From assembly GCA_012729815.1 (NCBI GenBank), contig JAAYCJ010000014.1, positions 1,043-65,042 on the forward strand: a DNA stretch of 64,000 nucleotides, in the 5' to 3' direction. Below the pieces are notes generated by a model, which was not told the origin of the DNA, ran no database searches, and saw nothing but the letters and a program-made list of their open reading frames with translations. Positions 16,850 through 63,526 of this stretch are shown here, one piece after another. The position numbers and the translations under genes are program-made. The stretch is from Phycisphaerae bacterium (lineage in GTDB: Bacteria; Planctomycetota; Phycisphaerae; JAAYCJ01). Numbering within the stretch: the first letter of the stretch is position 1; each line of letters opens with the position of its first letter.

Positions 16850-16874
16850 TCCTTCCAATGGACCAGTAACTTCT

Positions 16875-17000: not shown

Positions 17001-17044
17001 GCAATGACCGACAAGCCCTTTGGAGACCAAGGAGAAACCCGAGT

Positions 17045-27173: not shown

Positions 27174-27476
27174 GGGTTGCCAAACCGACGGGGCGGGAGC
27201 ATGCCCCATCTTGCATCTTGCTGTTTGGTATTTTCATTTTTCATCTCCCCTCCGCCCCCCTGACTTCCCGTCTTCCCGGGCCTACAATACAGGGTCGGGG
27301 TGATTCGCAGCGTGGGGAACTCCTTGCAAACCCTGATGAATTTGGTACGGTATCGGGTGGGAACGAACCGGGTGTGGCAGGTTAGCCGGGGCCTCAAGAC
27401 CGATCAGCGATCAGACGGTGGAGGGTAGGCCGTTGCGCGGGTTGGGCAGCGTCCGCCAACCGGCAAAGGAGCACCG

Positions 27477-30716: not shown

Positions 30717-30739
30717 ACCATCCCCCCCGCAAGGGCGGT

Positions 30740-30865
30740 GAAGGCAAAATGCAACATGCAGAAGGCAAAATGCAGAATGAAGAGGCCTGACGACACACCG
30801 GCGGCCCCCATCGCCGGGCACGCCACCTCTTCTCATTTTGCACTTTGCATTTTGCCTTCTGCATT
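30740..30865. other. Imperfect ~120-nt palindrome between the CheB/R fusion gene and the kinase gene
   Basis: gaaggcaaaatgc...(loop)...gcattttgccttc is a perfect 13-bp pair. An outer gaagagg/cctcttc pair flanks it, and ggcaaaatgca direct repeats occur inside. No U-tract follows. Confidence 0.3.
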
Positions 30866-30909
30866 CTCCATTGGCATTTCCTCCTGGCTTCTTCTTCGGA
30901 GCCTTGTCC

Positions 30910-47214: not shown

Positions 47215-47252
47215 GGTGACCGATCACAAACTCGTTTCAATGCGGACGACCC

Positions 47253-48209
47253 ATGGGTAAGGATAAACCACGTCTGGGACGGGGACTGGCGTCCCTCGTC
47301 AGCCAACTCGCCGAACCAATGCCAGCCGCGGCCGTGTCCGATCCGGAAGTCCACGCCGCCGACCACACCGGCGGCGACGGCCCCGCCTTCGCGCCGCCCG
47401 CCGACGCCGTCCCGGCCCGGCTGCTCGCCCTCGACCTGGTCGATCCCAACCCCTATCAGCCGCGGAGCGACTTCAGCGACGACGGCCTCGAACAACTCGT
47501 CGCCTCCATCCGCGAGCAGGGCGTCGTTCAGCCAATCGTCGTCCGACCGCACGGCCAGCGATTCCAACTCATCGCCGGCCAACGCCGACTCGAAGCCTCG
47601 CGCCGCGCCGAGATGCGCACCATTCCCGCCGTCATCCGGCAGGCCGATGACCGGCAGATGCTCGAAATCGCCCTCGTCGAAAACATCCATCGCGAAGACC
47701 TCAACTGCGTCGACCGGGCTCAGGCCTACCGCCGATACGAGCAGACCTTCGGCTTCGGCGCCGAGCAGATCGCCGAACGACTCGGCCAGGACCGCACCAC
47801 CGTCACCAACTACCTGCGACTGCTCGCCTTGCCCGACGAAGTCCTCCAGCTCCTCCGTCACGACCGCCTCAGCATGGGCCACGCCCGCGCCCTGGCCGGA
47901 CTCGACAACCCCTCGCTCCAGATCAAGCTGGCCGTCAAGATCGTCCAGCAGGGCCTCTCCGTCCGCCAGGCCGAAGCCCTCGTCGCCGAAAGCAAGCAGG
48001 AGCATCCGCCGACCGCCAAAAAACCGCCGGCCAAGCATCCCAACATCCTCGACCTCGAACAGCAGATGACCCGCGCCTTAAGCACCCGCGTCCAGATCAA
48101 CCCCGCCCGCAAAAAAGGCCAGGGAAAAATCATGATCGAGTTCTACAGCTTCGACGACTTTGAAAGGATCATGGACCGGATCTGCGGCGAGCAGCGAGAA
48201 GAACTCTAG
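47253..48209 (+). CDS. parB: ParB/Spo0J chromosome partitioning protein
   Basis: ParB box LDLVDPNPYQPR, the segment QPIVVRP..GQRFQLIAGQRR, and ALVENIHREDLN are present. No parA lies upstream. Confidence 0.9.
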   Translation: MGKDKPRLGRGLASLVSQLAEPMPAAAVSDPEVHAADHTGGDGPAFAPPADAVPARLLALDLVDPNPYQPRSDFSDDGLEQLVASIREQGVVQPIVVRPHGQRFQLIAGQRRLEASRRAEMRTIPAVIRQADDRQMLEIALVENIHREDLNCVDRAQAYRRYEQTFGFGAEQIAERLGQDRTTVTNYLRLLALPDEVLQLLRHDRLSMGHARALAGLDNPSLQIKLAVKIVQQGLSVRQAEALVAESKQEHPPTAKKPPAKHPNILDLEQQMTRALSTRVQINPARKKGQGKIMIEFYSFDDFERIMDRICGEQREEL

Positions 48210-50640: not shown

Positions 50641-50668
50641 TTGACGCAAAGGCCGCATTTGCTACAAT
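50641..50668 (+). promoter_or_regulatory. Sigma70-like promoter TTGACG, 16-nt spacer, TACAAT; the predicted start site is at or next to the LacI ATG (leaderless)
   Basis: ttgacgcaaaggccgcatttgctacaat ends 7 nt before the ATG at 50676. Confidence 0.45.
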
Positions 50669-50675
50669 CAATTCC

Positions 50676-51779
50676 ATGAAACGATTACACGGCCAGCCCG
50701 ACACCTCCACCGCCGCCCCGGCCACCGTCACCTCCGTGGCCCGTCATGCCGGCGTTTCGGTAGGCACCGTCTCCCGGGTGCTCAATAACCACCCGCGCGT
50801 TTCCGCCGCCGCCCGCCAAGCCGTCGAACGCGCGATCCGCGAACTCGACTACCGGCCCGACCCCGTCGCCCGGTCGCTGCGACGCCGCGGAGCCAACGGC
50901 CGCGTCTGGACGGGCAACATCGGCGTCTTCTTTCCCAACACCACCCACGCCATGCTCCAGGTACCGTTCATGTCGCGCATGGTCCAGGGCGTCCAGTCCG
51001 AACTGGCTGACAACGGCTATCATCTGATCATCTCCAACACCACTGACTCCTCAGCCCTGCCCGACGTCGTCCGCGACCGCAAGGTCGAAGGCCTCCTCGT
51101 CCACGGCGACTTGGGCCTCGACCTCTGCTCGCGGCTCACCGCCGCTCTCCCAGCCGTCAGTATGGGCCAGCACGCGACGGGCCTGCCCATCGCCATGGTC
51201 AACGTCGACAACCGCGCCGCCGTCGTCACCGCCGCCACCCGACTCTTCGCCCTCGGCCATCGCCGCATCGGATTCGTCGCCCGCGACCCCGAGCATCGCG
51301 ACTTCGCCGAACGCCGCGACGGCTACCGCCAAGCCGTCCAACTCCTGGACCTCCGTTACGATCCAGCCCTCGAAGCGGTAGGGGGGGCGTCCGACCTTTC
51401 CGGCCCGCGAACTCCGCAGACCGAACCGCCGGACATGAGCGAACCGCTCGCGCGGCTGCTCGATCTGCCCGATCCGCCCACCGCCCTGATCGTGCCCAGC
51501 GACTGGCAGGCCATCGGCGTCTACCGCGCCCTGGCCGCCCGCCGCCGCCGCATTCCCGACGACCTCTGCGTCATCGGCTTCGACAACGACCCAGGCGTCT
51601 GCCATTCGCTCACGCCCGCCCTCTCCAGCATTAACTACCCCTCCGAACAGATCGGCCGCCAAGCCGTCCGCCTCCTCCTGAACCAGATTCGCGAAGGATC
51701 CGCCATGCACCGCCAGACAATCCTCATCAAATCCGAACTGATCGAACGCGCCTCCATCGCCCCGGTGAAACGATCATGA
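50676..51779 (+). CDS. LacI family transcriptional regulator
   Basis: Helix-turn-helix [21 protein letters not shown] followed by a periplasmic-binding-protein-like sugar domain. The stop overlaps the start of the next gene (ATGA). Confidence 0.85.
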
Positions 51780-52504
51780 CGCCCAACCAACCCACATCGC
51801 AGCCCGCCTCCCGATCCGACCGCCAGGCTCGATCGTTCACCCTCATAGAACTCCTGGTCGTCGTCGCGATCATCGCCGTCCTTGTCTCCATCCTGCTGCC
51901 CGCCCTCCAGAACGCTCGCCAGCAGGGCCTCATGGCCTCCTGCGCCGGCGGCCGACTCAAGCAACTGGGCGTCGGCTTCCTGATGTACGCCGATGACAAC
52001 CACGGCTGGTTCCCGATCCAATATCCCGAATACTACAGCTCCTGGCTCTGGCTCGTCGATCCGCCCAACACCGTTACCTCCAGGTACATGACCGATGCCC
52101 TCACCAACGCCGACGAACGCTTCGGCCAAGCTAAGTACGTCCCGCAGGAATGCTTCTACTGCCCAGCCAACCGCGACGTCACCGTCGAAAATAACTGGTG
52201 GGGCTGGTGGAGCGGATACGAATTCGGCAAGATCAGCTACCTCAACTTCTACTACTTCGGCCACATCGCCTACGACACCTACTTCGTCAGCGACGGCTTC
52301 AGCCCGAAAAACACCAACCACCATCGCCTCGCCGAAGGCGTCCTCTTCGCCGACCGCGTCCGATCCGCCTCCGGAACCGCCGCGATCTCCTGGAATCACC
52401 CAGCCGCGGCCAACGTCCTCTTCGCCGACGGCCACGTCCAAGTCAAACCAACCGGCACGTGCCAACTCAAATACCAGATGGCCTCGAACGGATACCTGTG
52501 GTGA
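51776..52504 (+). CDS. DUF1559 protein with a prepilin-type N-terminal cleavage/methylation domain
   Basis: N-terminus [26 protein letters not shown]; C-terminal H-X9-DG motif NVLFADGHV. Confidence 0.85.
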
Positions 52505-52539
52505 CAGCTTTTCACCGTCACGTTCCGCGGGAGCTCTCC

Positions 52540-54963
52540 ATGAATCCGACCCGCCTCCTCATCCTCGCCTCCATCCTGACGGCCGCCTCTTCAACCTGTC
52601 TCGCCCAGACCAGCCGTCCCGTCAGACCCCAACCCAACAGCGTCTTTGGCCTCTGCGACCGCTACGTCAAACCCGCATGGCAAATCGGCGTCTTCAAGTG
52701 GCGGCGGATGGACATCGACTTCCATCCCGAAAACTGGAACGCCGAGACGACCTTCGAAGACACCGTCGCCTATTTCGATCAGGTCCTGGCCTTCTCCGAA
52801 CAGCACGGCGTCTGCGTCATGCCGATCCTCAACCTCCGCCACTTCGGCCATCGCTGGCAGCCCGGCGGCCAAACCGCTGAGCATCCCGACGCCTTCACCC
52901 TCCACCGCTGGACCAACTGGGTCCATCGCGTGGTCGAACGCTACAAGGGCCGCGTGACTTACTGGGAAATCTCCAACGAGCCAGACCTCTCGACCACGCC
53001 GCAGCAGTACGCCGCTCTGGCCAAAGCCGCCTACCTCTCCGCCAAAGCCGCCGATCCGCAATGCCGCCTCGGCGCCTTCGCCACCGCCGGCGTCAACCTG
53101 CCCTTCATCGAACAATGCCTCCAACTCGGCATGGCCGACTACTTCGACTTCGTCACCGTCCATCCCTATCAGTGGTCGCATTCGTTCGACGCCGACCTGC
53201 TGACCGGTTCGCTCGCCGCCCTCGAGCAGCTTCTCGACCGCTACGGTTGCCCTCGGCCGATCTGGATCTCCGAACTCGGCTGGCCCACGCATCCGCAAGG
53301 CGGCTGCTCGCCGCAGGTCCAGGCCCGGATCGTCGCCCAGGCCTATCTGACCCTCGCCGCCCTCGGCCGCTACAAGACCTTCTGGTACACCCTCGGCGAC
53401 TGGCCGGCCGAACCGACCGACGCGGAAGGCTACTTCGGCCTGCTCGACGCCGCCGGCCGCCCCAAACCCTCTTTCCACGCCTACCGCCTCGCCTCCGAAA
53501 CCCTCTCCGACGCCATCGGCCTCGGACAAGCCGACCTGCCCAAAGGCCTGACCGGCTGGCTCTATCGCACCTCCGATGGGCGGCTGGCCATTGGCCTCTG
53601 GCGCAACACGGGTGATCCCTCCACCGCAACGATCGAGTTGCCCGACCTGCGCGATCCAGAGGTCGAGAAACGCGCCATCGATCTTTCCCGCGACATCCTC
53701 ACCGCCCGCGACGACGCCGTCGCGCTGGAAATCGGCCCCGATCCGCTGATCCTCCTGTTTCACAGTGACCGCAAGTACAACCTTCCCGCCCCATCCGCGC
53801 TGGCCGCGCCGCCCGCTAAGAGTCTTCCAATGTACCTGGCCGTTCCGCCCATGCCGTCCGCCTTCACCGGCGGTGCGCTCGAAATCCCCTTCAGCCTCGT
53901 CAATCTCTCCGAAACCGCGTGGACGGGCAGGGTAACCATCGCATCCCATCCGTCCGCCACGACCGAACTGACCGCCCAACCGGGTCAGGAAACCATCGGC
54001 CGCCTCTCCTTCCAGGTGCCCGAAGACGCTTCCAATGGATTGCTTCGCCTGATCCTGCGGGCGCCGGGCCTGGCCGATCTTCCCGTCGAACTCCAGGTCA
54101 CCAGCCCTCTCGCCGTCGAGCTCGATCCGGTGGCCGAGCCGCTTGACTGTCCAAGCATCCCGGTCAACTTCACGCTGACCAACGTCACCGACCATCACTT
54201 GACCGGACAACTGAACCTCGACGCCGCCGACGATCCTGCGATCGCGATCGACCTGCCGCCCGCCGCCTCCACCCGAATCGAACGAACCATCAGCCAAACC
54301 GAGTTCCGCCTCACCGGCAACCTGGCCGGCCGTCCCTTTGCCTTCACCCAGCCGCTCGACAGCATCCGCATCCCTCACGCCGCCAAAATCACCATCGACG
54401 CCGACCTCACCGATTGGCAAACCGTCGCCCCATTCCACCTCGGCCGCCGCCAGCAGGCTCAGCCGCTTCCCAACTGGTGGACCGGCCCAAACGACCTCTC
54501 CGCCAACGTCAAATTCCAGTGGGACCAGACCTGCCTCTACTTCGCCGCCGACGTCACCGACGACGTCCACTGCCAGCGGTCCACCGGCGGCGGCACGTGG
54601 CTCGGCGACGGCTTCCAGATCGCCCTCGAAGCCGACGGCGCCTACGGCTACGAACTGTGCCTCGCCCGCACCATGAGTGGCAGCGAACTCTACCTGCTTC
54701 GGGCCGTCCAAGGCCCGACCGGCCCGGTCCCGGGGGCACTGGTAGCCACCCGCCGCCGCAACGACCACACCCTCTACGAAGCCGCCATCCCCTGGTCGGC
54801 CCTGCCATCGCTGCAACCCCAGTCCGGCCAAACCCTTAAGCTCAACTTCATCCTCAACGAGAGCGACGCCCTCACCCGCGTCGGCTGGCTCGAATGCCGC
54901 CCCGGCATCGGCAGCGGCAAGTCCACCACCACCTGGTACCCCTGGCGATTGGCCGCCCCCTGA
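52540..54963 (+). CDS. Secreted clan GH-A (TIM-barrel, GH5/GH39-like) glycoside hydrolase with a C-terminal CBM9-like domain
   Basis: Start re-called to the signal peptide MNPTRLLILASILTAASSTCLA. Catalytic acid motif WEISNEPD and nucleophile motif WISELGW. The C-terminus DADLTDWQ...FQWDQTCLYFAADVTDD is CBM9-like. Confidence 0.6.
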   Translation: MNPTRLLILASILTAASSTCLAQTSRPVRPQPNSVFGLCDRYVKPAWQIGVFKWRRMDIDFHPENWNAETTFEDTVAYFDQVLAFSEQHGVCVMPILNLRHFGHRWQPGGQTAEHPDAFTLHRWTNWVHRVVERYKGRVTYWEISNEPDLSTTPQQYAALAKAAYLSAKAADPQCRLGAFATAGVNLPFIEQCLQLGMADYFDFVTVHPYQWSHSFDADLLTGSLAALEQLLDRYGCPRPIWISELGWPTHPQGGCSPQVQARIVAQAYLTLAALGRYKTFWYTLGDWPAEPTDAEGYFGLLDAAGRPKPSFHAYRLASETLSDAIGLGQADLPKGLTGWLYRTSDGRLAIGLWRNTGDPSTATIELPDLRDPEVEKRAIDLSRDILTARDDAVALEIGPDPLILLFHSDRKYNLPAPSALAAPPAKSLPMYLAVPPMPSAFTGGALEIPFSLVNLSETAWTGRVTIASHPSATTELTAQPGQETIGRLSFQVPEDASNGLLRLILRAPGLADLPVELQVTSPLAVELDPVAEPLDCPSIPVNFTLTNVTDHHLTGQLNLDAADDPAIAIDLPPAASTRIERTISQTEFRLTGNLAGRPFAFTQPLDSIRIPHAAKITIDADLTDWQTVAPFHLGRRQQAQPLPNWWTGPNDLSANVKFQWDQTCLYFAADVTDDVHCQRSTGGGTWLGDGFQIALEADGAYGYELCLARTMSGSELYLLRAVQGPTGPVPGALVATRRRNDHTLYEAAIPWSALPSLQPQSGQTLKLNFILNESDALTRVGWLECRPGIGSGKSTTTWYPWRLAAP

Positions 54964-55029
54964 AAATGCCCCTTGACACCACAACCGGTTTAGATTACAA
55001 TCAAAACCGGTTGTGGAGGTTAACGTGCA

Positions 55030-56055
55030 ATGGCCGGACCCAGCATCGCCGAAATCGCCCGACGACTGAAGCTCTCCAAGACCACGGTCTCCCGGGTCTT
55101 TAACGACGTGCCCAACTCCGGAATTGCCCCAGCCACCCGGCGGCGGGTGCTCGCCGCGATCCGCGAAATGGGCTACGAACCTAACCTCTCCGCCCGAGCC
55201 CTCGCCCGCGGACGGACCCACGTCATCGGTGCGATGATGATCGACGTGAACAACCCCTTCGCCAGCGGCTACGTCTCAGCCGTCGAGGAACTCGCCGGCG
55301 GCAAGGGCTACGGCGTCCTCCTGTGCAACACCCGCGGCAGCGGCGAAAAGGAACGCGAACAGTGCCGCATGCTCCGCCAGCGAGGCGTCGAAGGCCTCCT
55401 GATCGAACACGTCGGACCGGCCGAAACCCTCCGCGAACTGGTCGACGAGGGCTTCCCCTTCGTCCTCCTGGATCGCTGCCCTCAGTCGCCGCAGTTCGAC
55501 TACGTCACTTTCGACGACGTCGAGGGCGGACGCCTCGCCACCATGGCCCTGATCGACGCCGGCCGGACCAAAGTGGCCCATATCGCCGGGCCGCAAGCCG
55601 TCCTCCCCGCTGAGGACCGGCTCATCGGCTACCGCGAAGCCCTGGACGAAGCCGAACTGCCGTGGCGCGACGACTACGTGGTGTGGGTCGACCGGCATGA
55701 GAATCCGGACGACGGCGAGCACGCGGCCGACCGCCTGCTCGATCTGCCCAGCCCGCCGGACGCGGTCTTCTGTTACAGCGACCACCTGGCCCTGGGCGTT
55801 TTTCGCGCCGCCGCCCGGCGCGGCGTCCGCGTCCCGCACGACCTGGCGGTGATCGGCTGCGACGACCTGCCGTTCTGCCCGTGGACCGCCGTGTCGCTGG
55901 CCTCTGTCCGCCTGAACACCCGGCAACTCGGCCACGAGTCCGCCGGACTGCTCCTCGAAAAAATCGAGCGAGACGACGCCCGCGGGCCCGGCTCGCGCCG
56001 AATCCTCATCAAGCCCGAAGTGGTTCATCGGGAGTCGCTGGGACAGCGGAGGTAA
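55030..56055 (+). CDS. LacI family transcriptional regulator
   Basis: Helix-turn-helix [21 protein letters not shown] with a PBP-like domain. Confidence 0.85.
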
Positions 56056-56059
56056 CGCC

Positions 56060-56836
56060 ATGAACAACATGCGCCGATGCCGGTTCAGACTCTCTGATGC
56101 CTTTACCCTCATCGAACTGCTGGTCGTGGTGGCCATCATCGCCGTACTGGTGGCGATCCTGCTGCCGGCGATGACCGCCGCCCGCGAAGCGGCGCGAAAA
56201 GCCGCCTGCGGTGCCAACCTGCACCAGATGGGAATCGGAGCGGCCCTCTACGCCGCCGACAACGGCGGTTGGGTGCCCAGCGGCTTCGTGGGCTCGAGCA
56301 TCGGATTCACCGTGATTCCCGAATACCCCTGGTTCGTCTCCGTTCCCAAGGGGCCGCCTGCCCCCCTGATCTACCGGCTCTGGAAGGACGGCAGGTTCCC
56401 GCCGCGAATCTTCTACTGCCCGACCGCCACGGCGGCCGGGGCGGTGACGACGTACACTCCCGAAAACTTCGAATGGCGGCTCAGCGGCCATCCCGACAGC
56501 CCCGGATGGACGCTCACCTCCTACGCCGAACGCGTGGAAACCTGCCTCGACGCCGCCGGCAACACCGTCTTCGATCCGGGTCGTGCTCGGGTCGACTTCT
56601 TCAAAGCCGAGTACCTGGCCGACAAGGCCATGATCGCGGATGTCTACTGCGACAACTACGCCTTCAGCGCCCACCCGCGGGCAAGAGAACTGGAGCGGAC
56701 CGGCGGGTGGAACGTCTGCTTCGGCGACGGCAGCGTCAGGTTCAGGCAACTCGACGAGTACCTGTCCGACCCGAGCATCGGTGTCTGGTGGTCGCACTAC
56801 ACCTTCTGGCGCCACTGGGATGTGGTGGGAGAATAG
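56060..56836 (+). CDS. DUF1559 protein with a prepilin-type N-terminal cleavage/methylation domain
   Basis: N-terminus [25 protein letters not shown]; C-terminal motif [18 protein letters not shown]; starts 4 nt after the LacI stop. Confidence 0.85.
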
Positions 56837-56944
56837 AACAACGGTGGAAGGACTTGCATCTTGTTTTCACTCGAGTTGGGTTTGTGTTCTGAACAGGAAA
56901 AGACTCCGAGCCTGCACACGGTAGTATTGAAAGGACACTCATTG

Positions 56945-58666
56945 ATGCGGTACTTGACCATTGCGACGGCTTTAATGATGCTGATGTCGGCTTCCTCGGC
57001 ATGGGCCAAGACGATCTACCGGACCTCCTTCGAAAACGAAACCCTCGCCGGAAACGTCACCACCGAAGCCATGGCCGAAGACCCAGCCCTGCAAAAGGAA
57101 ATGGCCGGCCGCTGGCGGGCCGTGGCCTGGGGCGTGCCCGAGGCCACCACCGACGCCTCCAGCATCGTCGCCGATCCCAGCGCTCCGGACGGCAAGCAGG
57201 TCGTCGAGGTCCACCACCAAATCAACCAGATCAGCGCGGTGGTCATGCAGTTGGACACCAAACAGCTCGTGCCCGGCCGATGGTACCGGGCCGACGGCAA
57301 GATCCGCACCGAAGGCCTTCGGGGCCAGGGCTGCCACCTGAACCTCGAGTACTGGATCGGCGGCAACGGCAGCGGGTCGGTCGACTCCGAACACCTCGTG
57401 GGCGACAACGGCTGGACCGACGCTTCGGCGGTCTTTCAGGCCCCCAACTCGCAGTACAACCTGAACCTGAGCTTCTTCGTCCTCGGCGGGCCGGGCAAAG
57501 CCTGGCTCGACGACGTGCGCGTCCGCCAGATCGAAAAACCCGCCTTCGACCAGTCCAAACGCCGTGTCCTCGACGGGTCGTTCTGGGGCATGTTCACCTG
57601 CTTCCCGATGTACCTCCACCAGTACGGCAAGGACATGAAGGAGGCCGGCGTCTACTGGCAGCGTCAGGGCTCAGCAGCCCTGAACGAGCACCAGCAGGGC
57701 TTGGCCCAGCAACTGGGCATGGCGTTCGAAATGTGCCTCGACGGCACGCCGCCGGCCAGCGACCGCGAAGGCGACGAGCAGAACCTCGAAGCCGGCTGGC
57801 CGGGCTACGAAAAATGGGTGGCCCAATGCCTCGAACAGGCCGGTCCGGCCATCCGGATCATCGAGGTGGCCAACGAGCCCAACACCCACGTTCAATGGAC
57901 GCTGCCGGGCTACGCCGAACTGCTGTGCCGCGTCGGCAAAATGGTCAAGGAGCACAAGTCGCAGATCGCCTTCGCCACCGGCGGGTTCACCTCGCCCCAG
58001 ATCGGCTATACCGAGGCCTGCCTGAAGCGCGGGGCCGACAAGGTGCTCGATATCGTCCTGATCCATCCCTACGCGGTCGATGAGGCCCTCGACAGCCAGC
58101 TCTTCGCCCTTGGCGACGCCTGTGCCCGGGCCGGCCGGCCCGACCTGGCCGTCGCCATCAACGAGACCGGCTTTCCCACCTGGGACCCCGCCACCGGCCA
58201 TCCGGTCAACGCGTGGTTCGTCACCGAGAAGGACCAGGCCGCCAAGGTCGTCAAACTCCACGTCCAGGCCCTCGCTCACCAGTGCAGCTTCGTCACGTAC
58301 CTGGGCTGGAACGACTTCGCCGAACCCAAGTCCGACCAGGCCATGAACATGGGCCTGGTGCGGGTCGACGGTTCGCCCAAGCCGTCATGGCACGCCTACC
58401 GCTTCATGACCGCGACCGTCGCCGACCGCCGCCAGGTCGATTGGTCCTACGCCGACAACGGCGCCCGCGTCTATCGCCTCGCCGGTGAAAAACCGCTCTG
58501 GATCTGCTGGAACGCCCTCCGCGAAAGCGACGTGACGATCGACACCGGCGACGTCCAGGTCTTCCCCTGCGACATCTACGGCGTCAAGCAGACCGTCGAG
58601 CCGGTCGCCGGCAAGGTCACCGTCAAAGCCGCTGACGAACCGATATACCTGGTTCCGGTTCCCTAG
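56945..58666 (+). CDS. Secreted clan GH-A (GH5-like) glycoside hydrolase with an N-terminal CBM4/9-like beta-sandwich
   Basis: Start re-called to the signal peptide MRYLTIATALMMLMSASSAWA. Motifs IIEVANEPN and INETGFPTW. The N-terminal 200 aa are beta-rich and CBM-like. Confidence 0.55.
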   Translation: MRYLTIATALMMLMSASSAWAKTIYRTSFENETLAGNVTTEAMAEDPALQKEMAGRWRAVAWGVPEATTDASSIVADPSAPDGKQVVEVHHQINQISAVVMQLDTKQLVPGRWYRADGKIRTEGLRGQGCHLNLEYWIGGNGSGSVDSEHLVGDNGWTDASAVFQAPNSQYNLNLSFFVLGGPGKAWLDDVRVRQIEKPAFDQSKRRVLDGSFWGMFTCFPMYLHQYGKDMKEAGVYWQRQGSAALNEHQQGLAQQLGMAFEMCLDGTPPASDREGDEQNLEAGWPGYEKWVAQCLEQAGPAIRIIEVANEPNTHVQWTLPGYAELLCRVGKMVKEHKSQIAFATGGFTSPQIGYTEACLKRGADKVLDIVLIHPYAVDEALDSQLFALGDACARAGRPDLAVAINETGFPTWDPATGHPVNAWFVTEKDQAAKVVKLHVQALAHQCSFVTYLGWNDFAEPKSDQAMNMGLVRVDGSPKPSWHAYRFMTATVADRRQVDWSYADNGARVYRLAGEKPLWICWNALRESDVTIDTGDVQVFPCDIYGVKQTVEPVAGKVTVKAADEPIYLVPVP

Positions 58667-58675
58667 AGGTGCACG

Positions 58676-59422
58676 ATGAAAATCGCAAAAACCAGATCGT
58701 TTACGCTCATTGAACTGCTCGTGGTGGTCGCGATCATCGCCGTGCTGGTCTCGCTGCTGCTGCCCGCGCTCTCCGAGGCCCGCGAAATGGCCCGCCGCAC
58801 CGCCTGCGGGTCCAACCTTCACCAGATGGCCGTCGCAACGGTCATGTACGCCGGCGACAGCGACGACGTCATCCCAAGCGGCTTTATCGGCCAGAACATC
58901 GGCCTGTGCGTCGGATCGACCTGGGGCGGCGACGGCATGTTGCCCTACCCGCGCGATTTCGGCTGCCTGATCTACGAGCTCTACACCCGCGAAAAACTCT
59001 CCGCCGCGACCCTCTTTTGCCCCAGCTACGACGGGGCCGACAGGTCGGCCAGCGGCATCGAACAGGGCTTCGCCACGCCCGGCGGTTTCGCCCAGTGCAC
59101 CTATGAGGAACGCATCCCGTACCCGCCCGACGGATCGGGATGGAATATGGCCTCTCCGCCGCGGATTCACACCTTCCGCCTCAGCGACCTGGGCAGCGCC
59201 GCCATCCTCGCCGATGTCTTCTGCTACAGCTACTCGTGGAGCGCCCACCCCCGGACCTCCGCGTTTCCCGCCTTCGGCTACAATCCCGTCGGCGGATGGA
59301 ACGTCGCCTACGCCGACGGCGGCGTGGCCTTCGTGCCCATGGGACCCGAGTGCTCAGCCGGGCCGTACTGGTGGCCGCAGTATTTCTGCTACTGGACCTA
59401 CTTCGACGCAAATCGCCGCTGA
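58676..59422 (+). CDS. DUF1559 protein with a prepilin-type N-terminal cleavage/methylation domain
   Basis: N-terminus [25 protein letters not shown]; C-terminal motif [18 protein letters not shown]. Confidence 0.85.
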
Positions 59423-59491
59423 TTTCCCTTGCCGACCGCGATGGATGAGGGCACAATCCCCGAAAACTCTCCCTCTGGTTCGAGGTAGGCC

Positions 59492-61798
59492 ATGACGGAC
59501 TTTCACTGGATCGACGCAACGTCGGAGCTTGCGATCATCGACCCCAAGCACCCCACCTACCTGCCGCTCTGCGGCAACCGGTGTTGGGCACTCGTTCCCA
59601 CGAGCCTCGATGGCTACGCCTACCTGGTGAACCTCCAGATCTGGATGCGGATCCTCAAGCGGTTCGGGCTCTACCTGGACGCGGGCGGCCGGCGCGGAAG
59701 TCTGCCGGAGGCGCTCGACGATCTGGAGACCTTCTACGGGGCCAACGTCCTTCGCCTGACCGGGCGAACCAATGGCCTGGCCGTCGAGATCAAGGTCTAT
59801 CCCGACGCCGAGGCACCGCTACTCTACCTGACCCTTGAAGCGGCCAACCACACCGGTCAGGAGCGATCGCTGGCTGCGGTCCTGGCCGCGGATTTCGAGT
59901 TCCATCCCGCCCCGTGGGCGGCCAAGGGGTTCACCGAAGACGCCACCAACGACTATTCGGACGCCGGCCGTAAGCTCAATCCGCCGCACGACGACCGCCT
60001 CGACGTCTCGGATGACGGAGCCGTCGTCTGCGTCTCGGATTCGCGAAATCCCGGCCTTGGCTTTCTTGCCGGACCGACGCCCGCCGGTTGGACCCTGGAC
60101 CGGACGAAGTTCAGCTTCGAAACCCCGATCGGCGGTCATCGGCCGCTCCGCGCAGCGGACATGGACAAGAGCTTCGAACTCACCGGCGAGACGCACAGCG
60201 ACGACAGCTTCTGTGCCCTGCGCCATGAGCTGCGGATACCAGCCGGGAGCAAAGCGCGATTGACGTTCGCCTTCGGTCATCAGGAGCAGCGCGACCTCCC
60301 AGCGATCCGGCAAACCCTCGCCGACGCGGACGGAGCGCTCGAACGAACGTCGCGATTCTACGGCGAGTCGCTGGCCAACGGCGTCAAACTCACCACGCCC
60401 GACCCGGTGATCAACGCCCAGTTCAACCTCAACAACGTCTTCATCAAACTCAACGAACACCACTGCGGCGCCAAACGCAGCTTTGTGCCCGCTCCCCATT
60501 ACCACAACTGGCTCTGCGGGGATATGTTCTTCACCGCCATGGGCTACGCCTACGCCAATGACATCGCCGCGTTCCGCGAGGGCATGGACATGTTCCGCCG
60601 ATTCCAGCACGCCGACGGGTTCATCCCCGACCTGCCGCTCTGGACCGAGGGGCCGTCCTGGCGGGAACGACCGGGCCTGGCCATCGGCGGATGCTTCTGC
60701 TACATCACAGCCTACTGCCATCTGCTCAAGCTCACGCAGGACAAGAGCCTGGCCGCCGAGCTGTTCCCCTCGTTCCAGCAGGCACTGAGCGTCTACCGGG
60801 ATCTCGTGCGAGAAGGGCTCGTGGTGCCCGACGGCGATTTCGTCTTCGACTCCCTCGACTGGCCGTGCGGCTTTGGCCACTGCCCGCAGACCTTCATGTC
60901 GCTTCTCGTCTACAAGGCGCTGCTCGACCTGGCCGAGTTGGCCGAATGGCTCGGAAAGGCCGACTGCGCAGCCGAACTGCGGGCCGAAGGCGAGCAGCTC
61001 AAACATGCGATCAACGAGAAGGCGTGGATCGAGGAGCAGGGCCACTATCGAATCGGCTTGGCCACCGAACCGGTCGGCAAGGGCGAGGACGACCGCCAGC
61101 GCTTCACGCAAAAGACGATCTCCTGGAGTACGCTCATGGCGGTGGTCTGGGGCGTGGCCGAGGGGGCGCGAGGCGAAACGGCGCTGAAGACCGTGCGCCA
61201 GCGGCTCCTGACCCCTTACGGCATGAAATTCGCCGATCCGCCGTGGGAACCGGTCTATACCGACGCCAAGGGCGCAGCTACCTACGAGGCCGGCCGGGTC
61301 CAGAACGGAGGATACTGGCAGGCGTGGTGGTCCATCCCCACCTTCGCGGGCGCCCAGATCCTGCTCGGGCAGACCGAGCAGGCCTTCGCCGACTTTCTCG
61401 AAGTCCGCCTCGATCGACTCTACGAACGCTTCACGCTGAGCGAGAAGGGACGCACCTGCCGCTTCCTGACGATCGGCGAGTGGATCGACACGGACCTGAC
61501 CTTCCCGATCACCTCCGTGCCCTACGCGGTGACCTGCGGGCTGCACAACCAGACGCTGATCGAATCCTTCGTGGGCGTCCAGGTCGGCTACGACAGCCTC
61601 ACCATCGACCCGCACCTGCCCGCGGCGTGGGACCGGGTCGACCTGAAGAACCTGCGGGTAGGCGACTCGACCTGGAACATCGAGATTCGCGGGCGCGGCC
61701 GCCTCGCCAGGGTCACCGTCGACGGATCGCAACGGCCGTCCAACCGCATCCCGATCACGCCCGGCGAACACGCGGTGCGGGTGGACCTGGAGCCGTGA
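59492..61798 (+). CDS. Six-hairpin (alpha/alpha)6 glycoside hydrolase, GDE_C / GH63 / GH78-like
   Basis: The segment HNWLCGDMFFTAMGYAYANDIAAFREGMDMFRRFQHADGFIPD resembles the GDE_C/amylo-alpha-1,6-glucosidase family core. 768 aa; family assignment is tentative. Confidence 0.45.
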   Translation: MTDFHWIDATSELAIIDPKHPTYLPLCGNRCWALVPTSLDGYAYLVNLQIWMRILKRFGLYLDAGGRRGSLPEALDDLETFYGANVLRLTGRTNGLAVEIKVYPDAEAPLLYLTLEAANHTGQERSLAAVLAADFEFHPAPWAAKGFTEDATNDYSDAGRKLNPPHDDRLDVSDDGAVVCVSDSRNPGLGFLAGPTPAGWTLDRTKFSFETPIGGHRPLRAADMDKSFELTGETHSDDSFCALRHELRIPAGSKARLTFAFGHQEQRDLPAIRQTLADADGALERTSRFYGESLANGVKLTTPDPVINAQFNLNNVFIKLNEHHCGAKRSFVPAPHYHNWLCGDMFFTAMGYAYANDIAAFREGMDMFRRFQHADGFIPDLPLWTEGPSWRERPGLAIGGCFCYITAYCHLLKLTQDKSLAAELFPSFQQALSVYRDLVREGLVVPDGDFVFDSLDWPCGFGHCPQTFMSLLVYKALLDLAELAEWLGKADCAAELRAEGEQLKHAINEKAWIEEQGHYRIGLATEPVGKGEDDRQRFTQKTISWSTLMAVVWGVAEGARGETALKTVRQRLLTPYGMKFADPPWEPVYTDAKGAATYEAGRVQNGGYWQAWWSIPTFAGAQILLGQTEQAFADFLEVRLDRLYERFTLSEKGRTCRFLTIGEWIDTDLTFPITSVPYAVTCGLHNQTLIESFVGVQVGYDSLTIDPHLPAAWDRVDLKNLRVGDSTWNIEIRGRGRLARVTVDGSQRPSNRIPITPGEHAVRVDLEP

Positions 61799-61959
61799 TC
61801 GGTCCGGGTCTGGTCGGTGTGGGCTATGCAGTTTTCAAACATCCGCAGCGGGAAAAGTCCCACTGCATGATAAAGATACCACAACAATTCGGGGGCGAAA
61901 AAACGGCCCTCCAAGACCGGCAATAGAAACGGCGCAGGAATCCCTGCAGAAATTGCAGG

Positions 61960-62667
61960 TCAATCCTCGGGGTTTCGCGTCATCTGTCCCGGCTGCCAGT
62001 CAACAAACCACCTGGCGTGGCCGTCGCCGAACAGGATATCGTGCCCGTCGCGGTGGGGGCCCTTGGCCGCTGCGTTCTGATAATACCACAGCGCGCCCCG
62101 GCCGTTGGGGTCCCAATCGGCTCCGCCCCATTCGTCCGATGGGTCGATGTCCCTGTACATGCCGTTGCCGGAGGTGGTCTTGATCGGCTGATCGTTGAGC
62201 AACACGAAACGGTCGGTGTAGAGCACCTGGTCCGGCCGCAACACGTTCCGCTCGCCGCCCATGTACGCCACCCCGTCGTTGCCCGCCAGCCAGTTATAGC
62301 AGTAGCTGATATCGCAGTCCAGCCGCACCAGCACCGGACAGTCGTAGACCTCCTTGATGTGGTGGTAGGGCAGCAGGGCGACCGCAAAGCCCAAATCGTC
62401 CCGCAGGGCCATGTTCGGATCGTGCAGGTACTCATCCCAACTCGTCTGCTTGCCCGTCACCGAGATCGGATAAACAACCCACTTCTCAGCGTACATGCCC
62501 AACGCCAGCCCGATCTGCCGCAGATTGCTCAGGCACGCCGATTGCCCCGCGCTCGCCCGGGCCTCGCTCAACGCCGGCAGCAGCAAGGCGGCCAGAATGG
62601 CGATGATCGCCACCACCACGAGAAGTTCAATCAGGGTGAAACCCATTTGCCGACTGATGGTCGTCAC
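61960..62667 (-). CDS. DUF1559 protein with a prepilin-type N-terminal cleavage/methylation domain
   Basis: N-terminus [26 protein letters not shown]; C-terminal motif [10 protein letters not shown]. Confidence 0.85.
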
Positions 62668-62746
62668 GTTCTTGCCTCCCGACGCATCCTTGGCTATCCT
62701 CTCTTACCATCGATACCGTAACGGATTTCGCGAATATTCGAACAGG

Positions 62747-63526
62747 ATGGTCTCGATGCGGATCGAACGGATGACGCACGCCGGATTAGATGGCTTTCCG
62801 GAGGTCCTGCGGGTTGATTACCGCAGCCCGAAGGACGGGTACGCCGACTGGACCCTCGTCCGACCGTCCGAGCGGGCCGAGCTGTGGGTCGTCTGCCTCC
62901 ACGGCCATGGGTCGCACGGCGATCAGCTCTACACCCGGCCCGACATCCGCGACTGGTGGCTAAGCCGGTTTCTCCAACACCGTGTCGGCATCCTCACCCC
63001 CAACCTCCGCGACAACGCCTGGATGGGCCCAGCCGCCGCTGCCGATCTGCACGAACTGCTGGCCTGGACCCGCAACCAGTATCGCGTCAAACGGTTCCTC
63101 TTCTTCAGCGGCTCGATGGGCGGAACCGGCAACCTGATCTACGCCGTCCTGCATCCCGACGACGTGGCCGCAGCGGTTGCATTGGGCGCAGCGTCCGACC
63201 CGGCTTCGTACCGCCGGTGGTGCCGAACCCAGCAGGGCGGCGTCGTTCACGAGATCGCCGACGCCATCGAAGAATCCTACGGCGACCACGCCGACCTCTA
63301 CCACCGCCATTCGCCGCTCAAGCACGCCTCAAAACTGACCATGCCCGTCTACCTGGCCCACGGCGCCGATGACGCGATCATCCCCGTCGATCAGTCCCAG
63401 CGTCTGGCCAACGCGATGGCCGGACGCCCCAACTTCATCTACCGCGAAATCCCTAGCGGCGATCACGACTCGCCCCTGGCCGACGGCGATGCCTTCGACT
63501 GGGCGATAGCGCGGCTGGAGGCCTGA
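62747..63526 (+). CDS. Alpha/beta-hydrolase fold esterase/lipase
   Basis: Nucleophile elbow GSMGG; HGXGSHGD near the N-terminus. Start re-called to MVSMRIERM (listed ORF 62495 is upstream). Confidence 0.65.
   Translation: MVSMRIERMTHAGLDGFPEVLRVDYRSPKDGYADWTLVRPSERAELWVVCLHGHGSHGDQLYTRPDIRDWWLSRFLQHRVGILTPNLRDNAWMGPAAAADLHELLAWTRNQYRVKRFLFFSGSMGGTGNLIYAVLHPDDVAAAVALGAASDPASYRRWCRTQQGGVVHEIADAIEESYGDHADLYHRHSPLKHASKLTMPVYLAHGADDAIIPVDQSQRLANAMAGRPNFIYREIPSGDHDSPLADGDAFDWAIARLEA

Follow-up and report, generated by a model that had tools for sequence, protein, structure and literature searches.

The glycan locus at 48.3-63.5 kb of the 64-kb stretch of planctomycete DNA from a Phycisphaerae MAG analysed here (the window) pairs each of its exported, CBM-bearing GH39-like enzymes with its own type-IV-pilin/pseudopilin-like protein, and these pilin-like proteins are most likely operon-specific minor filament subunits that would serve glycan capture or enzyme docking. 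As best explanation it is tentatively suggested that the locus constitutes a PUL-like glycan-utilisation system, in which two autoregulated LacI operons are accompanied by a flanking GH95 gene, a divergent pilin gene and an esterase gene, and in which the pilins act as filament subunits capturing glycan. The occurrence of a fast-evolving pilin-like gene per sugar-regulated exported-enzyme operon hints at pilus-based polysaccharide capture or enzyme handling. What a first-pass annotation of the region had observed was partly confirmed and its interpretation partly supported.

Layout and transcription of the locus

Within the window, the FTLIELL pilin motifs (four) and the GH/CE genes (five) are confined to the locus, neither being present in the remaining ~48 kb. 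On its upstream flank lies a GH95-family glycosidase gene of the alpha-L-fucosidase/galactosidase type (48304-50553, plus strand; Pfam Glyco_hydro_95_cat 1.2e-53, GH65N_2, GH95_C; same gene call in identical contigs), which had earlier been placed inside 50641-62667; position 50641 corresponds to the -35 box of the promoter preceding LacI-1 and not to a gene start. A sigma-70-like promoter (TTGACG-16-TACAAT, 50641-50668, plus) is followed on the same strand by LacI-1 (50676-51779), a LacI-family sugar repressor with HTH and periplasmic-binding-protein fold (Pfam LacI 3.4e-17, Peripla_BP_3 5.5e-33; NCBIfam LacI-family), by pilC (51776-52504), encoding a prepilin-type protein (N_methyl 2.1e-7; TIGR04294 23.4 bits, cut-off 19; TIGR02532), and by GH-D (52540-54963), encoding an exported GH39/PslG-like clan GH-A enzyme with signal peptide MNPTRLLILASILTAASSTCLAQ and C-terminal CBM9 (CBM9_1 6.6e-9). 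Promoter scan and inverted-repeat search identified a second sigma-70 promoter (TTGACA-17-TACAAT, 11/12 matches) together with a candidate LacI-2 operator at 54973-55016 (plus), followed, again on the plus strand, by the genes for the LacI-family sugar repressor LacI-2 (55030-56055; Pfam, NCBIfam, tblastn orthologues), the prepilin-type DUF1559-like protein pilF (56060-56836; N_methyl, TIGR04294 21.0 bits, PF07596 41.1 bits over profile positions 2-54 only), the exported GH39-like enzyme GH-G (56945-58666), its conserved prepilin-type partner pilH (58676-59422, 9 nt 3' of GH-G) and GH-I (59492-61798; Pfam Glyco_hydro_94 4.8e-12), a GH94-like six-hairpin enzyme of the beta-glycan phosphorylase type. 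The prepilin-type DUF1559-like gene pilJ (61960-62667, minus; PF07596 36.6 bits, N_methyl, TIGR02532 29.1 bits) is monocistronic, with two terminator-like hairpins (61904-61948, minus) directly 3' of it in the convergent GH-I/pilJ gap, and is divergent from a gene for an alpha/beta-hydrolase esterase (62756-63526, plus; Pfam) of the BD-FAE (feruloyl/acetyl-xylan esterase) type. The coordinates from 50676 to 63526 bear out the gene order and strands annotated before, and Pfam and NCBIfam agree with the earlier LacI, GH95, CBM9, GH94-type six-hairpin and alpha/beta-hydrolase assignments. No transporter gene was found in the locus, and T4P/T2SS machinery and prepilin peptidase are absent from the window. 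Since identities are only ~30-37% among the pilins, 31% between the LacIs and 29% between the GH catalytic domains, the modules are, judged by sequence divergence, old and did not originate from recent duplication.

Within the 17 kb from 47 to 64 kb only two sigma-70-like sites were identified, located exactly 5' of LacI-1 and LacI-2. Between the -35 and -10 boxes of the first, the palindrome GCAAAGGCCGCATTTGC (50646-50662) is found, which is unique in the window, and because the -10 box ends 7 nt 5' of the LacI-1 ATG at 50676, the operon 1 mRNA is probably leaderless. A palindrome of 38 bp, which contains two AACCGGTT boxes, overlaps the operon 2 promoter including the LacI-2 -10 box. It is the top-ranking inverted repeat in the 16-kb region, its 18-nt arms being complementary at 94%, and a candidate operator of LacI-2; AACCGGTT was found nowhere else in the 64 kb. 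Promoter and both boxes are kept 5' of the LacI-2 orthologues in L011, L013 and L015, whose genomes are of very different GC content. As annotated before, LacI-1 and pilC overlap (ATGA at 51776) and 4 nt separate LacI-2 from pilF; the gaps within the operons amount to -4, 35, 4, 108, 9 and 69 nt, and no plus-strand terminator was found between the genes. Operon 1 would comprise LacI-1, pilC and GH-D, and operon 2 LacI-2, pilF, GH-G, pilH and GH-I; transcription of both from the LacI promoters agrees with these gaps, the two promoter matches and the conserved operator, in line with the earlier proposal that each regulator is co-transcribed with pilin and CAZyme genes.

Exported enzymes and pilin-like proteins

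Among the five GH/CE genes, signal peptides were identified on GH-D and GH-G only, the N-termini of GH95 (which has no hydrophobic signal), GH-I and the esterase revealing none upon inspection, so that the 'four or five secreted' hydrolases counted before reduce to two. These two were rightly assigned to clan GH-A, as both possess the NEP and nucleophile-Glu motifs and match GH39 and PslG structures (GH-D: 5jvk 6.9e-11, PslG 3.9e-7). GH-G, for which neither a Pfam nor an NCBIfam match was obtained, is member of a small family annotated solely as 'hypothetical', with N310-E311 and E407 being invariant in 47 homologues; its AF2 model (pLDDT 92; Foldseek: GH39 5jvk 1e-18, PslG 2e-17) predicts a GH39-like TIM barrel between two beta-sandwiches, an N-terminal one that is CBM4/22-like and a C-terminal one. 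GH-I matches chitobiose and cellobiose phosphorylases in the PDB (about 1e-9) and is probably a cytoplasmic finishing step, the substrate of the locus probably being a plant hemicellulose or beta-glycan.

All four pilins share the motif [GAS]FTLIELL with Glu5. The residues preceding FTLIELL were correctly read as S (pilC), A (pilF), S (pilH) and G (pilJ) and were taken to be unusual; with G in 67, A in 40, S in 12 and C in one of 120 homologues, A or S at -1 is normal throughout the family. Four prepilin-type genes are indeed present, of which pilF, pilH and pilJ pass the PF07596 (DUF1559) threshold, from profile position 2 to positions 54-66 of 268, but pilC, counted earlier as a fourth DUF1559 gene, has no PF07596 match in the Pfam search and instead has N_methyl and H-X9-DG, together with a leader of 20 aa, FTLIELL, S at position -1 and E at position +5. 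H-X9-DG was also spotted by eye in the pilJ translation. A protein identical to pilF is encoded on 33 metagenome/MAG blocks, where it is named 'DUF1559 domain-containing protein [Phycisphaerae bacterium]'. Phe1, Glu5 and the entire assembly helix, which in known pilins have a role in filament assembly, are invariant across the family; the N-terminal ~60 residues are closest to GspG (NCBIfam), and the family profile matches PDB pilins at 1e-14 to 1e-7. The predicted fold is that of a type IV pilin/pseudopilin and neither an SBP/periplasmic-binding-protein fold nor a lectin-like fold, for which the earlier annotation had suggested examining the DUF1559 C-terminal domains. The globular domains are very divergent, that of pilH having just 11 relatives in 1.84e9 representatives, a scarcity which fits a fast-evolving recognition domain. 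Their W+Y+F content of 17.5-19.8% (pilC 19.8%; the exception is pilJ with 12.9%), the reference values being 7.6% for housekeeping proteins and 10.9% for long DUF1559 proteins, is a compositional hint lending weak support to polysaccharide capture.

Conservation of the pilin-enzyme linkage

LacI-2 orthologues, 50-56% identical, were identified by tblastn in four other loci, and the LacI-2/GH-G/pilH module recurs in L011, L013 and L015 and on the P0004 contig, whereby a 52% identical esterase orthologue adjoins it in L013 and a 766-aa GH-I-homologous neighbour comes after the pilH orthologue on P0004. Orthologous GH-G/pilH pairs occur across Phycisphaerae, Lentisphaeria and unassigned contigs (42-61% and 54-58% identity). 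GH-G orthologues of Phycisphaerae, Lentisphaeria and Pirellulales have a pilin gene directly 3' of them (pilH in the Lentisphaeria MAG, a pilin in the Pirellulales MAG), while no pilin gene adjoins those of Armatimonadota. In L015 and L025 the pilin-GH pair is duplicated as one unit. Context look-ups with short pilF homologues led in 9/9 cases (about 6 genomes) to GH operons regulated by LacI or GntR-PBP proteins; in the look-up loci, GHs account for 13 of 26 pilin neighbours and for 9 of the 114 other genes, a difference with Fisher p = 2.9e-6, and a regulator lies directly 5' of the pilin in 7/15 (p = 3e-6). The GH adjoining a pilin carries a signal peptide in 13/14 cases, the other GHs of those operons having none. 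These sequence comparisons reveal a genuine pilin-GH(-LacI) linkage that is conserved between genomes and enriched beyond chance. The module had been parsed as LacI-DUF1559-GH, but in the pair conserved most strongly, GH-G and pilH, the pilin lies 3' of the enzyme.

The canonical long DUF1559 genes have GH or LacI neighbours in 0/3 cases, and among 80 metagenome loci a PBP-type regulator was present at one of 73 upstream neighbours, with no recurring GH family among 97 neighbours. As both samples lack the link, it does not extend to DUF1559 in general, and judged by these gene neighbourhoods it is limited to the short (230-290 aa) Phycisphaerae-type subfamily. The adjacency to be checked in related genomes holds for this subfamily, whose neighbours are enriched in GHs, and not for long or randomly sampled DUF1559 genes.

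Proposed mechanism and competing explanations

The suggested mechanism assumes that, as long as inducer is lacking, the LacI proteins occupy the palindromes overlapping the consensus sigma-70 promoters until a cytoplasmic sugar product frees them, whereupon regulator, pilin(s) and enzymes would be produced together. The pilin would enter the inner membrane, become cleaved by prepilin peptidase and, through its conserved Phe1/Glu5 helix, be incorporated into a type IV filament, either a T4P or a T2SS-type pseudopilus, the machinery for which would be encoded elsewhere, to serve as a low-abundance specificity subunit. There its divergent, aromatic-rich globular domain would bind the target polysaccharide and keep or pull it at the cell, where the co-induced exported GH39-like enzymes would cleave it; the oligosaccharides would then be taken up, and the enzymes lacking a signal peptide (the GH94-like phosphorylase, GH95 and the esterase) would complete their processing in the cytoplasm. 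Both filament incorporation and glycan binding are what we infer. That the pilin functions as an extracytoplasmic partner in the exported GH step is considered quite likely; action via a filament is slightly favoured, and direct glycan binding is proposed with some reservation. The earlier suggestion of a role in polysaccharide binding, uptake or presentation remains the best reading, and there are precedents, as pili-like fibres of planctomycetes bind dextran (PMC5394234), mucin uptake by Akkermansia requires pili genes (PMC12418764) and in M. xanthus PilA one Trp mediates exopolysaccharide recognition (PMC12691611). Against capture it counts that GH-D and GH-G have their own CBMs, so that there is no obvious need for another glycan binder, and that the Armatimonadota GH-G orthologues manage without a pilin neighbour. 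The lack of filament machinery and prepilin peptidase genes in the window, the lack of a transporter gene in the locus and the L022 operon, where a non-exported protein adjoins the pilin, likewise speak against it.

Pairing with signal-peptide enzymes and duplication as a unit suit a role in enzyme docking or secretion equally well, whereby each pilin would be a minor or tip subunit docking the co-encoded exported GH on a T2SS-type pseudopilus or T4P, with the enzyme crossing the outer membrane or being displayed on the filament and glycan binding coming from its CBM. This is judged somewhat less probable than glycan capture. In its favour, GHs without signal peptide are not specifically adjacent to pilins, the pair crosses phyla together, the N-terminus resembles GspG and translational coupling with a repressor gene points to an abundance as low as that of minor pilins. 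Furthermore, a ~20-aa helical insertion directly after the signal peptide, which could be a docking peptide, is specific to the GH-G clade with pilH 3' of it and missing from the pilin-less Armatimonadota copies; however, it also occurs in the Pirellulales GH-G beside an unrelated long DUF1559, and PVC paralogues without it still precede a pilin. T4b minor pilins bind an N-terminal segment of a secreted partner (CofB-CofJ, TcpB-TcpF), which a cargo-specific pilin of the locus would resemble. CofB is described as serving secreted CofJ as its adapter (PMC8179133). Against docking, the gene 3' of the L022 pilin encodes a protein of 402 aa that has neither a signal peptide nor a recognisable GH domain, leaving this operon without an adjoining exported enzyme, and the very high aromatic content is left unexplained. 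To our knowledge, no classical T2SS uses per-cargo pseudopilins.

A filament would be dispensed with altogether if, after processing, the N-terminal helix kept the protein attached to the inner membrane, where the protein, like a tethered SBP, would hand GH-released oligosaccharides to a transporter encoded elsewhere. The Pfam name SBP_bac_10 implies such a function, DUF1559 proteins have been termed 'solute-binding proteins' (PMC4807772), the domain is aromatic-rich, and the pilin sits where the SBP gene sits in LacI-SBP-permease-GH operons of other bacteria, in a locus that itself has neither SBP nor transporter; SSF or MFS transporters occur in some related operons. The predicted pilin fold, the invariant assembly features and the lack of a conserved partner permease beside the pilin render this unlikely. 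Far less likely still is that the membrane protein modulates the adjoining repressor, e.g., by membrane sequestration or extracytoplasmic glycan sensing. This would account for the tight coupling of the genes, the regulator lying directly 5' of the pilin also in both window cases, often with overlapping stop/start codons, and it is in line with leader peptides varying from 2 to 28 aa in the window pilins and homologues; but in the best-conserved module the pilin comes after the enzyme and not the regulator, the cleaved protein has almost nothing on the cytoplasmic side, and we know of no precedent. The most disfavoured explanation assumes no specific link, with pilin-like genes being in GH loci by chance or hitch-hiking; DUF1559-type genes are very abundant, with 68 paralogues in P. 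limnophila (PMC10632474), and the long and randomly sampled genes show no GH linkage. It conflicts with the retention of the GH-G/pilH pairs between lineages, with the look-up results and with all four window pilins residing in the GH locus.

Gene content and pilin-like proteins of the glycan locus

The glycan locus opens, with all genes on the plus strand unless stated otherwise, with a GH95 gene (48304-50553), which is followed by operon 1, comprising the genes for the LacI-family repressor LacI-1 (50676-51779), the prepilin-type protein pilC (51776-52504) and the GH39-like enzyme GH-D (52540-54963). Operon 2 holds a second repressor gene, LacI-2 (55030-56055), the prepilin-type gene pilF (56060-56836), the gene of the GH39-like enzyme GH-G (56945-58666), a third prepilin-type gene, pilH (58676-59422), and the gene of the GH94-like enzyme GH-I (59492-61798). 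The fourth prepilin-type gene, pilJ (61960-62667), lies on the minus strand and is followed by the gene of an alpha/beta-hydrolase esterase of the BD-FAE type (62756-63526). Both repressors carry the Pfam LacI HTH together with Peripla_BP_1/3, the domain set of the LacI family. The first-pass annotation had described LacI - DUF1559 - GH modules at 50641-62667 and proposed them to form a carbohydrate-capture system; the gene order given there agrees with the gene map, as do the ATGA overlap of LacI-1 with pilC and the gap of 4 nt between LacI-2 and pilF, while the range itself leaves out the GH95 gene and begins at a promoter -35 box.

Many metagenome assemblies of ENA and JGI contain the identical contig, as does the MAG GCA_036774425.1. 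The window has a GC content of ~65%, and the ~48 kb of it outside the locus carry housekeeping genes (LpxD, a MoxR/DUF58/transglutaminase operon, InlB-repeat proteins, a CheB-CheR-PAS fusion and Pol I) and were found to lack GHs, pilin-like genes, T4P/T2SS machinery and sugar transporters; a search for prepilin peptidase, T4P/T2SS machinery and sugar transporters across the entire 64-kb window likewise returned none. Six-frame translation of the 64 kb yields the motif FTLIELL at four positions, all of them inside the glycan locus. Apart from this, the minus-strand operon at 8908-13495 encodes a MoxR-type AAA ATPase, a DUF58 protein and a TgpA-like transglutaminase, two adjoining paralogues at 14483-18970 are built of 6-7 divergent InlB B-repeats (Flg_new_2), the second being fused to a cyclophilin domain, and a 1096-aa CheB-CheR fusion with PAS domains is followed by a PAS histidine kinase at 27429-32235. 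In the ParB region (45832-48209), parB (47253-48209, plus strand) is preceded by the gene of a 460-aa coiled-coil (apolipoprotein-like) protein, ParA is not adjacent, and the glycan locus begins 94 nt downstream of parB.

All four prepilin-type proteins possess a leader, a small residue at position -1, Phe1, Glu5 and an invariant hydrophobic helix. Their N_methyl scores amount to 25-31 bits (Pfam cut-off 21.2), the TIGR02532 cut-off of 16.3 was exceeded by each, and all four thereby show the class III signal peptide of the type IV pilin/pseudopilin superfamily. The residues S, A, S and G reported earlier for position -1 were found again; their variation had been called unusual, a view that does not hold, since 120 homologues carry G in 67, A in 40, S in 12 and C in one case, which makes A and S ordinary and rules out the -1 residue as an anomaly. 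The first ~60 residues resemble GspG, ComGC and PilA with scores well under the equivalog cut-offs; for the GspG equivalog TIGR01710, 26.3-36 bits were obtained as compared to a cut-off of 88.85, and the alignment covers profile positions 1 to 57-65 of a ~134-aa protein. The earlier designation of all four as DUF1559 genes stands in part for pilF (41.1 bits), pilH (36.2 bits) and pilJ (36.6 bits), which pass the PF07596 gathering score of 23.3 bits but align only to positions 2 to 54-66 of 268, and does not stand for pilC, which does not match this profile and carries N_methyl and the H-X9-DG motif alone. The H-X9-DG model TIGR04294 (cut-off 19 bits) is matched by pilC (23.4 bits) and pilF (21.0 bits), in pilJ the motif is visible by eye without a match to the HMM, and pilH has neither a TIGR04294 match nor a His at the correct spacing. 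Judged from these profiles, the four proteins are assigned to the prepilin-type superfamily as members that are not GspG equivalogs and that match DUF1559 and H-X9-DG in part; the NCBI label of pilF reads 'DUF1559 domain-containing protein [Phycisphaerae bacterium]'.

The AF2 model of pilH, computed from a 69-sequence alignment (pLDDT 81, pTM 0.81), displays an N-terminal helix of 50 residues and an alpha/beta globular domain. Such a long helix packed on an alpha/beta domain defines the pilin/pseudopilin fold, which is hence the predicted fold of pilH; the lectin-like fold considered earlier for DUF1559 proteins is not what the model shows, and neither is a solute-binding fold, as the Pfam name SBP_bac_10 would have it. 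The globular domain is extremely divergent: with pilH residues 60-248, 11 relatives at E <= 1e-3 were retrieved among 1.84 billion representative proteins, and these are pilH orthologues and pilF (30% identity). It is also rich in aromatic residues, with W+Y+F accounting for 17.5-19.8% in pilC, pilF and pilH and for 12.9% in pilJ, as compared to means of 16.0% in short-type homologues, 10.9% in long DUF1559 proteins and 7.6% in the housekeeping proteins of the window.

Linkage of short pilins to regulators and hydrolases

For the short pilin subfamily, the linkage of pilin, GH and regulator goes beyond chance, as documented by three independent lines, namely synteny, context look-ups and the compartment pattern of the enzymes. 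Synteny was followed through the GH-G family (47 homologues at E <= 1e-10, all labelled 'hypothetical'), and the orthologous comparison rests on GH-G/pilH, none of the loci compared being orthologous to pilC-GH-D/LacI-1. In six loci a pilin gene comes immediately after a GH-G orthologue (54-58% identity): three are on MAGs, assigned to an uncultured member of the Phycisphaerae (L015), to Lentisphaeria (L016) and to Pirellulales (L017), two are on metagenome contigs without assignment (L011, L013), and the sixth is on the 482-kb contig of the pilF homologue P0004. Five of the six pilins are orthologous to pilH (42-61% identity), a LacI-2 orthologue (50-56%) opens the module at four of the loci, and on the P0004 contig GH-G, pilH and six-hairpin GH succeed one another as they do in the window; the pilin-GH pair was moreover found duplicated as a unit in L015 and in the related locus L025. 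GH-G orthologues of four Armatimonadota MAGs have no adjacent pilin gene.

The look-ups were picked solely by similarity to pilF (P0002, P0003, P0004, P0007, P0012, P0018, P0020, P0027 and P0088) and represent about six genomes, because some of the contigs share a MAG or samples. All nine revealed operons joining GHs (GH5, GH2, GH42, GH123, GH78 and GH-G) with a regulator of the LacI type or of the GntR-HTH/Peripla_BP type. Pfam-labelled GHs made up 13/26 of the non-pilin neighbours of pilins as compared to 9/114 of the other genes (odds ratio 11.7, Fisher p = 2.9e-6), and a regulator lies directly upstream of the pilin in 7/15 cases (binomial p = 3e-6), with stop and start codons often overlapping or nearly touching. 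The enzyme adjoining the pilin carries a signal peptide in 13/14 cases, and the other GHs of the same operons (GH95, GH-I, BNR_2 and GH42/35) have none. Between the copies in the window, the LacI, pilin and GH components are ~30% identical, which rules out a recent tandem duplication of the module and identifies the modules as old, diverged units. A recurring module consisting of a sugar repressor, a private pilin-fold protein and an exported CBM-bearing GH is thus established, as is the co-inheritance of the pilin with its enzyme.

This association does not extend to DUF1559 genes at large. No GH or LacI gene adjoins the three canonical long DUF1559 genes of Planctomycetia covered by two look-ups, and when metagenome contigs were scanned with the pilin N-terminal pattern, using a position-anchored ORF picker validated on the window for gene calling, the 80 loci obtained, mostly of the long type, showed no recurring GH family among 97 immediate neighbours, which include N_methyl (8), CarboxypepD_reg (3) and sulfatase (2) genes, and a PBP-type regulator in 1/73 upstream positions. 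Ten further neighbours of short pilins comprise a sulfatase, a ConA-like protein, a sugar kinase and unrelated proteins. A general pairing of DUF1559 genes with CAZymes is thereby ruled out, and the expected conservation of the DUF1559-GH adjacency in related genomes was borne out for the short subfamily (9/9 look-ups) but neither for long DUF1559 genes nor in the broad metagenome sample. From the long-type and metagenome controls it follows that the association is confined to a short (230-290 aa) clade of the Phycisphaerae type with orthologues in Lentisphaeria.

Enzymes, promoters and a candidate operator

Two of the enzymes, GH-D and GH-G, carry a signal peptide and appear to be exported. 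GH-D, the sequence of which matches 5jvk and PslG, is predicted to be a GH39/PslG-like clan GH-A enzyme with a CBM9 at its C-terminus. For GH-G, the AF2 model (pLDDT 92) indicates a three-domain enzyme whose GH39-like barrel is preceded by a CBM4/22-like beta-sandwich and followed by a second beta-sandwich at the C-terminus; in Foldseek it retrieved GH39 5jvk (1e-18), PslG (2e-17) and also GH39 xylosidases, and residues N310-E311 and E407 are invariant in the 47 homologues. Neither GH-D nor GH-G matches the Pfam Glyco_hydro_39 model, and the GH39-like GH-G family, which has members among PVC bacteria as well as Armatimonadota, may represent a new family or subfamily of CAZy. In the clade followed by pilH-type pilins, a helical insertion of ~20 aa (GH-G residues ~33-55) directly succeeds the signal peptide, and this insertion is missing from the Armatimonadota copies and the PVC paralogues.

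GH-I scores 45.7 bits with PF17167 (cut-off 27) and 22.3 bits, just under the cut-off of 23, with PF06165, matches cellobiose and chitobiose phosphorylases of the PDB at ~1e-9, and is accordingly classed by sequence as a GH94-like six-hairpin enzyme devoid of a signal peptide. The GH95 assignment is documented by PF22124 (183 bits), PF14498 (36 bits) and PF21307 (32.5 bits). The GH95 enzyme and the BD-FAE-type esterase, an orthologue of which (52%) adjoins the LacI-2/GH-G/pilH module in L013, are likewise predicted to be cytoplasmic, as they have no signal peptide. The four or five secreted glycoside hydrolases counted in the first-pass annotation are hence reduced to GH-D and GH-G, the signal-peptide pattern ruling out that all GHs are secreted. 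The enzyme set as a whole suggests a plant hemicellulose or beta-glycan as substrate.

A consensus scan of 47-64 kb identified two sigma-70-like sites only, each exactly upstream of a LacI gene; their number is not above the shuffle expectation of 1.4, and it is their position and quality that make them telling. The LacI-1 promoter (TTGACG-16-TACAAT) locates to 50641-50668 and the LacI-2 promoter (TTGACA-17-TACAAT) to 54973-55001. Since the -10 box of the former ends 7 nt before the ATG at 50676, the LacI-1 mRNA is probably leaderless; the spacer of this promoter contains a unique palindrome, GCAAAGGCCGCATTTGC. Among the inverted repeats of the 16-kb region, the best (54979-55016, 18-nt arms, 94% complementary) extends over the LacI-2 -10 box, and within the window the AACCGGTT core is found only in this promoter palindrome. 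The LacI-2 promoter and two AACCGGTT boxes, the latter together a 38-bp palindrome, constitute a candidate operator (54973-55016), whose layout of -35 box, box 1, -10 box and box 2 is kept upstream of the LacI-2 orthologues in L011 (2655-2700), L013 (1317-1362) and L015 (6428-6475). As these loci differ greatly in base composition, the site qualifies as a phylogenetic footprint, and it is ready-made for EMSA and regulon prediction. The intra-operon gaps amount to -4 and 35 nt in operon 1 and to 4, 108, 9 and 69 nt in operon 2, no intergenic plus-strand terminator was found within the operons, and terminator-like hairpins occur downstream of the pilJ stop codon. We infer that the genes within both operons are co-transcribed.

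Possible role of the pilins and relation to known systems

With type IV pilins and T2SS pseudopilins (PilA, GspG/EpsG, ComGC) the pilins of the locus share the class III signal peptide, Phe1, Glu5, the hydrophobic helix of ~20 aa and, in the model, the long alpha-1 helix with its alpha/beta globular domain. However, they are about twice as large as GspG, possess a unique, aromatic-rich globular domain and are encoded singly in catabolic operons instead of beside assembly genes. The N-terminal region and, in part of the four proteins, the C-terminal H-X9-DG / xDG motif recur in the DUF1559 (PF07596) and H-X9-DG (TIGR04294) paralogue families, whose canonical members measure ~350 aa as compared to 235-258 aa here and, as far as the long members examined are concerned, have no adjacent GH or LacI genes. 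These pilin-like genes are among the largest paralogue families of Planctomycetota and other PVC bacteria, yet in the literature searched DUF1559 is described merely as a large paralogue family without assigned function, and CAZyme clusters of Planctomycetota are termed functionally uncharacterised.

Taking the evidence as a whole, the reading that we tentatively prefer, at less than even confidence, is that operon-specific filament pilins recognise a glycan which the exported enzymes cut. The pilins would be low-abundance, operon-specific subunits of a type IV filament, an assumption based on the invariant Phe1/Glu5 assembly helix and on the translational coupling to the repressor gene. Their divergent aromatic-rich domain would recognise the target glycan, so that the polymer stays at, or is pulled to, the cell and is cut there by the exported enzymes induced along with the pilin; processing of the oligosaccharides would be completed in the cytoplasm by the enzymes without signal peptide, and a sugar among the products would release the repressor. 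The main rival, which appears possible though rather unlikely, assumes that the pilin attaches its enzyme to a T2SS/T4P filament, by which the enzyme is secreted or displayed; CofB, the adapter for the secreted CofJ (PMC8179133), would be a parallel. The signal-peptide pattern of the pilin-adjacent enzymes and their own CBMs fit this idea, and the clade-specific insertion of the GH-G copies followed by pilH may be a docking peptide; however, it tracks pilH imperfectly and is therefore a lead, not proof. Both readings are compatible, as a pilus-tethered CBM-bearing enzyme would itself confer glycan binding on the filament.

That the pilin acts outside any filament as a membrane-anchored binder is improbable, and a modulation of the regulator by the pilin, the genes of which are so closely coupled, is very improbable; a chance association, set against the synteny, look-ups and compartment pattern, can scarcely be credited. 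A further-reaching extension of glycan capture by filament pilins, which we regard as speculative and on balance doubtful, sees the operon-specific pilins as the specificity determinants of retractile type IV filaments that draw polysaccharides or enzyme-polysaccharide complexes to or into the enlarged PVC periplasm, thus acting as SusD/SusC analogues. If true, this would add a third general way of capturing glycans to the SusCD systems and the ABC solute-binding proteins, and would provide the first function for part of the enormous DUF1559/H-X9-DG pilin-like expansion.

Pili that bind polysaccharides are known from several bacteria, pilins of Caldicellulosiruptor and Ruminococcus being examples. 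Crateriform pili-like fibres of planctomycetes bind dextran (PMC5394234), Trp146 of the M. xanthus PilA mediates exopolysaccharide recognition (PMC12691611), and adhesion of Fimbriiglobus to chitin by T4P is cited in PMC11131199. In such systems recognition of a polysaccharide falls to a fibre or to a subunit of a filament in the vicinity of degrading enzymes, with aromatic residues implicated, and the pilins of the locus may act alike; unlike there, where one pilus locus serves the cell, each GH operon here has its own pilin under sugar-repressor control. The mucin utilization locus (MUL) of Akkermansia muciniphila, a PVC bacterium too, comprises pili genes and periplasmic complexes required for glycan uptake (PMC12418764) and is alike by description, but is one dedicated locus for which no per-enzyme pairing is described. 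In the T4b pairs CofB-CofJ and TcpB-TcpF a specific pilin is encoded with its exported partner and serves as its adapter, an N-terminal cargo segment being the docking peptide, of which the GH-G insertion is a candidate counterpart; their pilins, however, are large multi-domain tip proteins within a pilus-biogenesis operon, and the exported partner is a colonisation factor instead of a glycosidase.

Bacteroidota PULs (SusC/SusD) and Gram-positive LacI-SBP-permease-GH operons are likewise substrate-specific, sugar-regulated cassettes consisting of a regulator, an extracytoplasmic recognition component and exported as well as intracellular GHs. In contrast, the locus holds neither SusC/SusD or another TonB-dependent transporter nor an SBP or permease, and a pilin-like protein takes the recognition slot. 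A SusC-like TonB-dependent transporter with a SusD-like lipoprotein, the hallmark of a Bacteroidota-type PUL, is absent from the locus and the related loci, and to our knowledge SusCD systems are absent from Planctomycetota. What appears to be new here is the combination of a glycan-utilisation operon with putative type IV filament subunits, and no description of a regulator-pilin-GH module was found in the literature searched. As a concrete, recurring module, it renders the polymer-capture question directly testable in cultivable Phycisphaerae, for which the locus supplies orthologous pairs, a conserved operator and a small uncharacterised GH39-like family. Should glycan binding or enzyme docking by the pilins prove true, the pilins would also be useful as markers when PVC polysaccharide loci are annotated and their substrates predicted.

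Further genes accompany the modules in related loci. URO-D-family (MtaA-like) genes adjoin regulator-pilin-GH operons in 5/9 of these (L022: 12240-13247; L023: 1-838 and 2928-4037; L026: 5328-6479; L027: 16585-17619; P0004 contig: 17646-18779), sometimes with MTTB-family genes, and may reflect corrinoid-dependent demethylation of methylated sugars. PEP-CTERM (exosortase-sorted) genes are interspersed with pilin and GH genes in L011 (7666-8250) and L025 (2430-4344, 9033-9899 and 10919-11038). On an unrelated metagenome contig (L077: 2-6366), a short pilin-like gene lies between the genes of a ConA-like/Laminin_G_3 protein and a sulfatase, which hints that other pilin subfamilies pair with sulfated-glycan enzymes.
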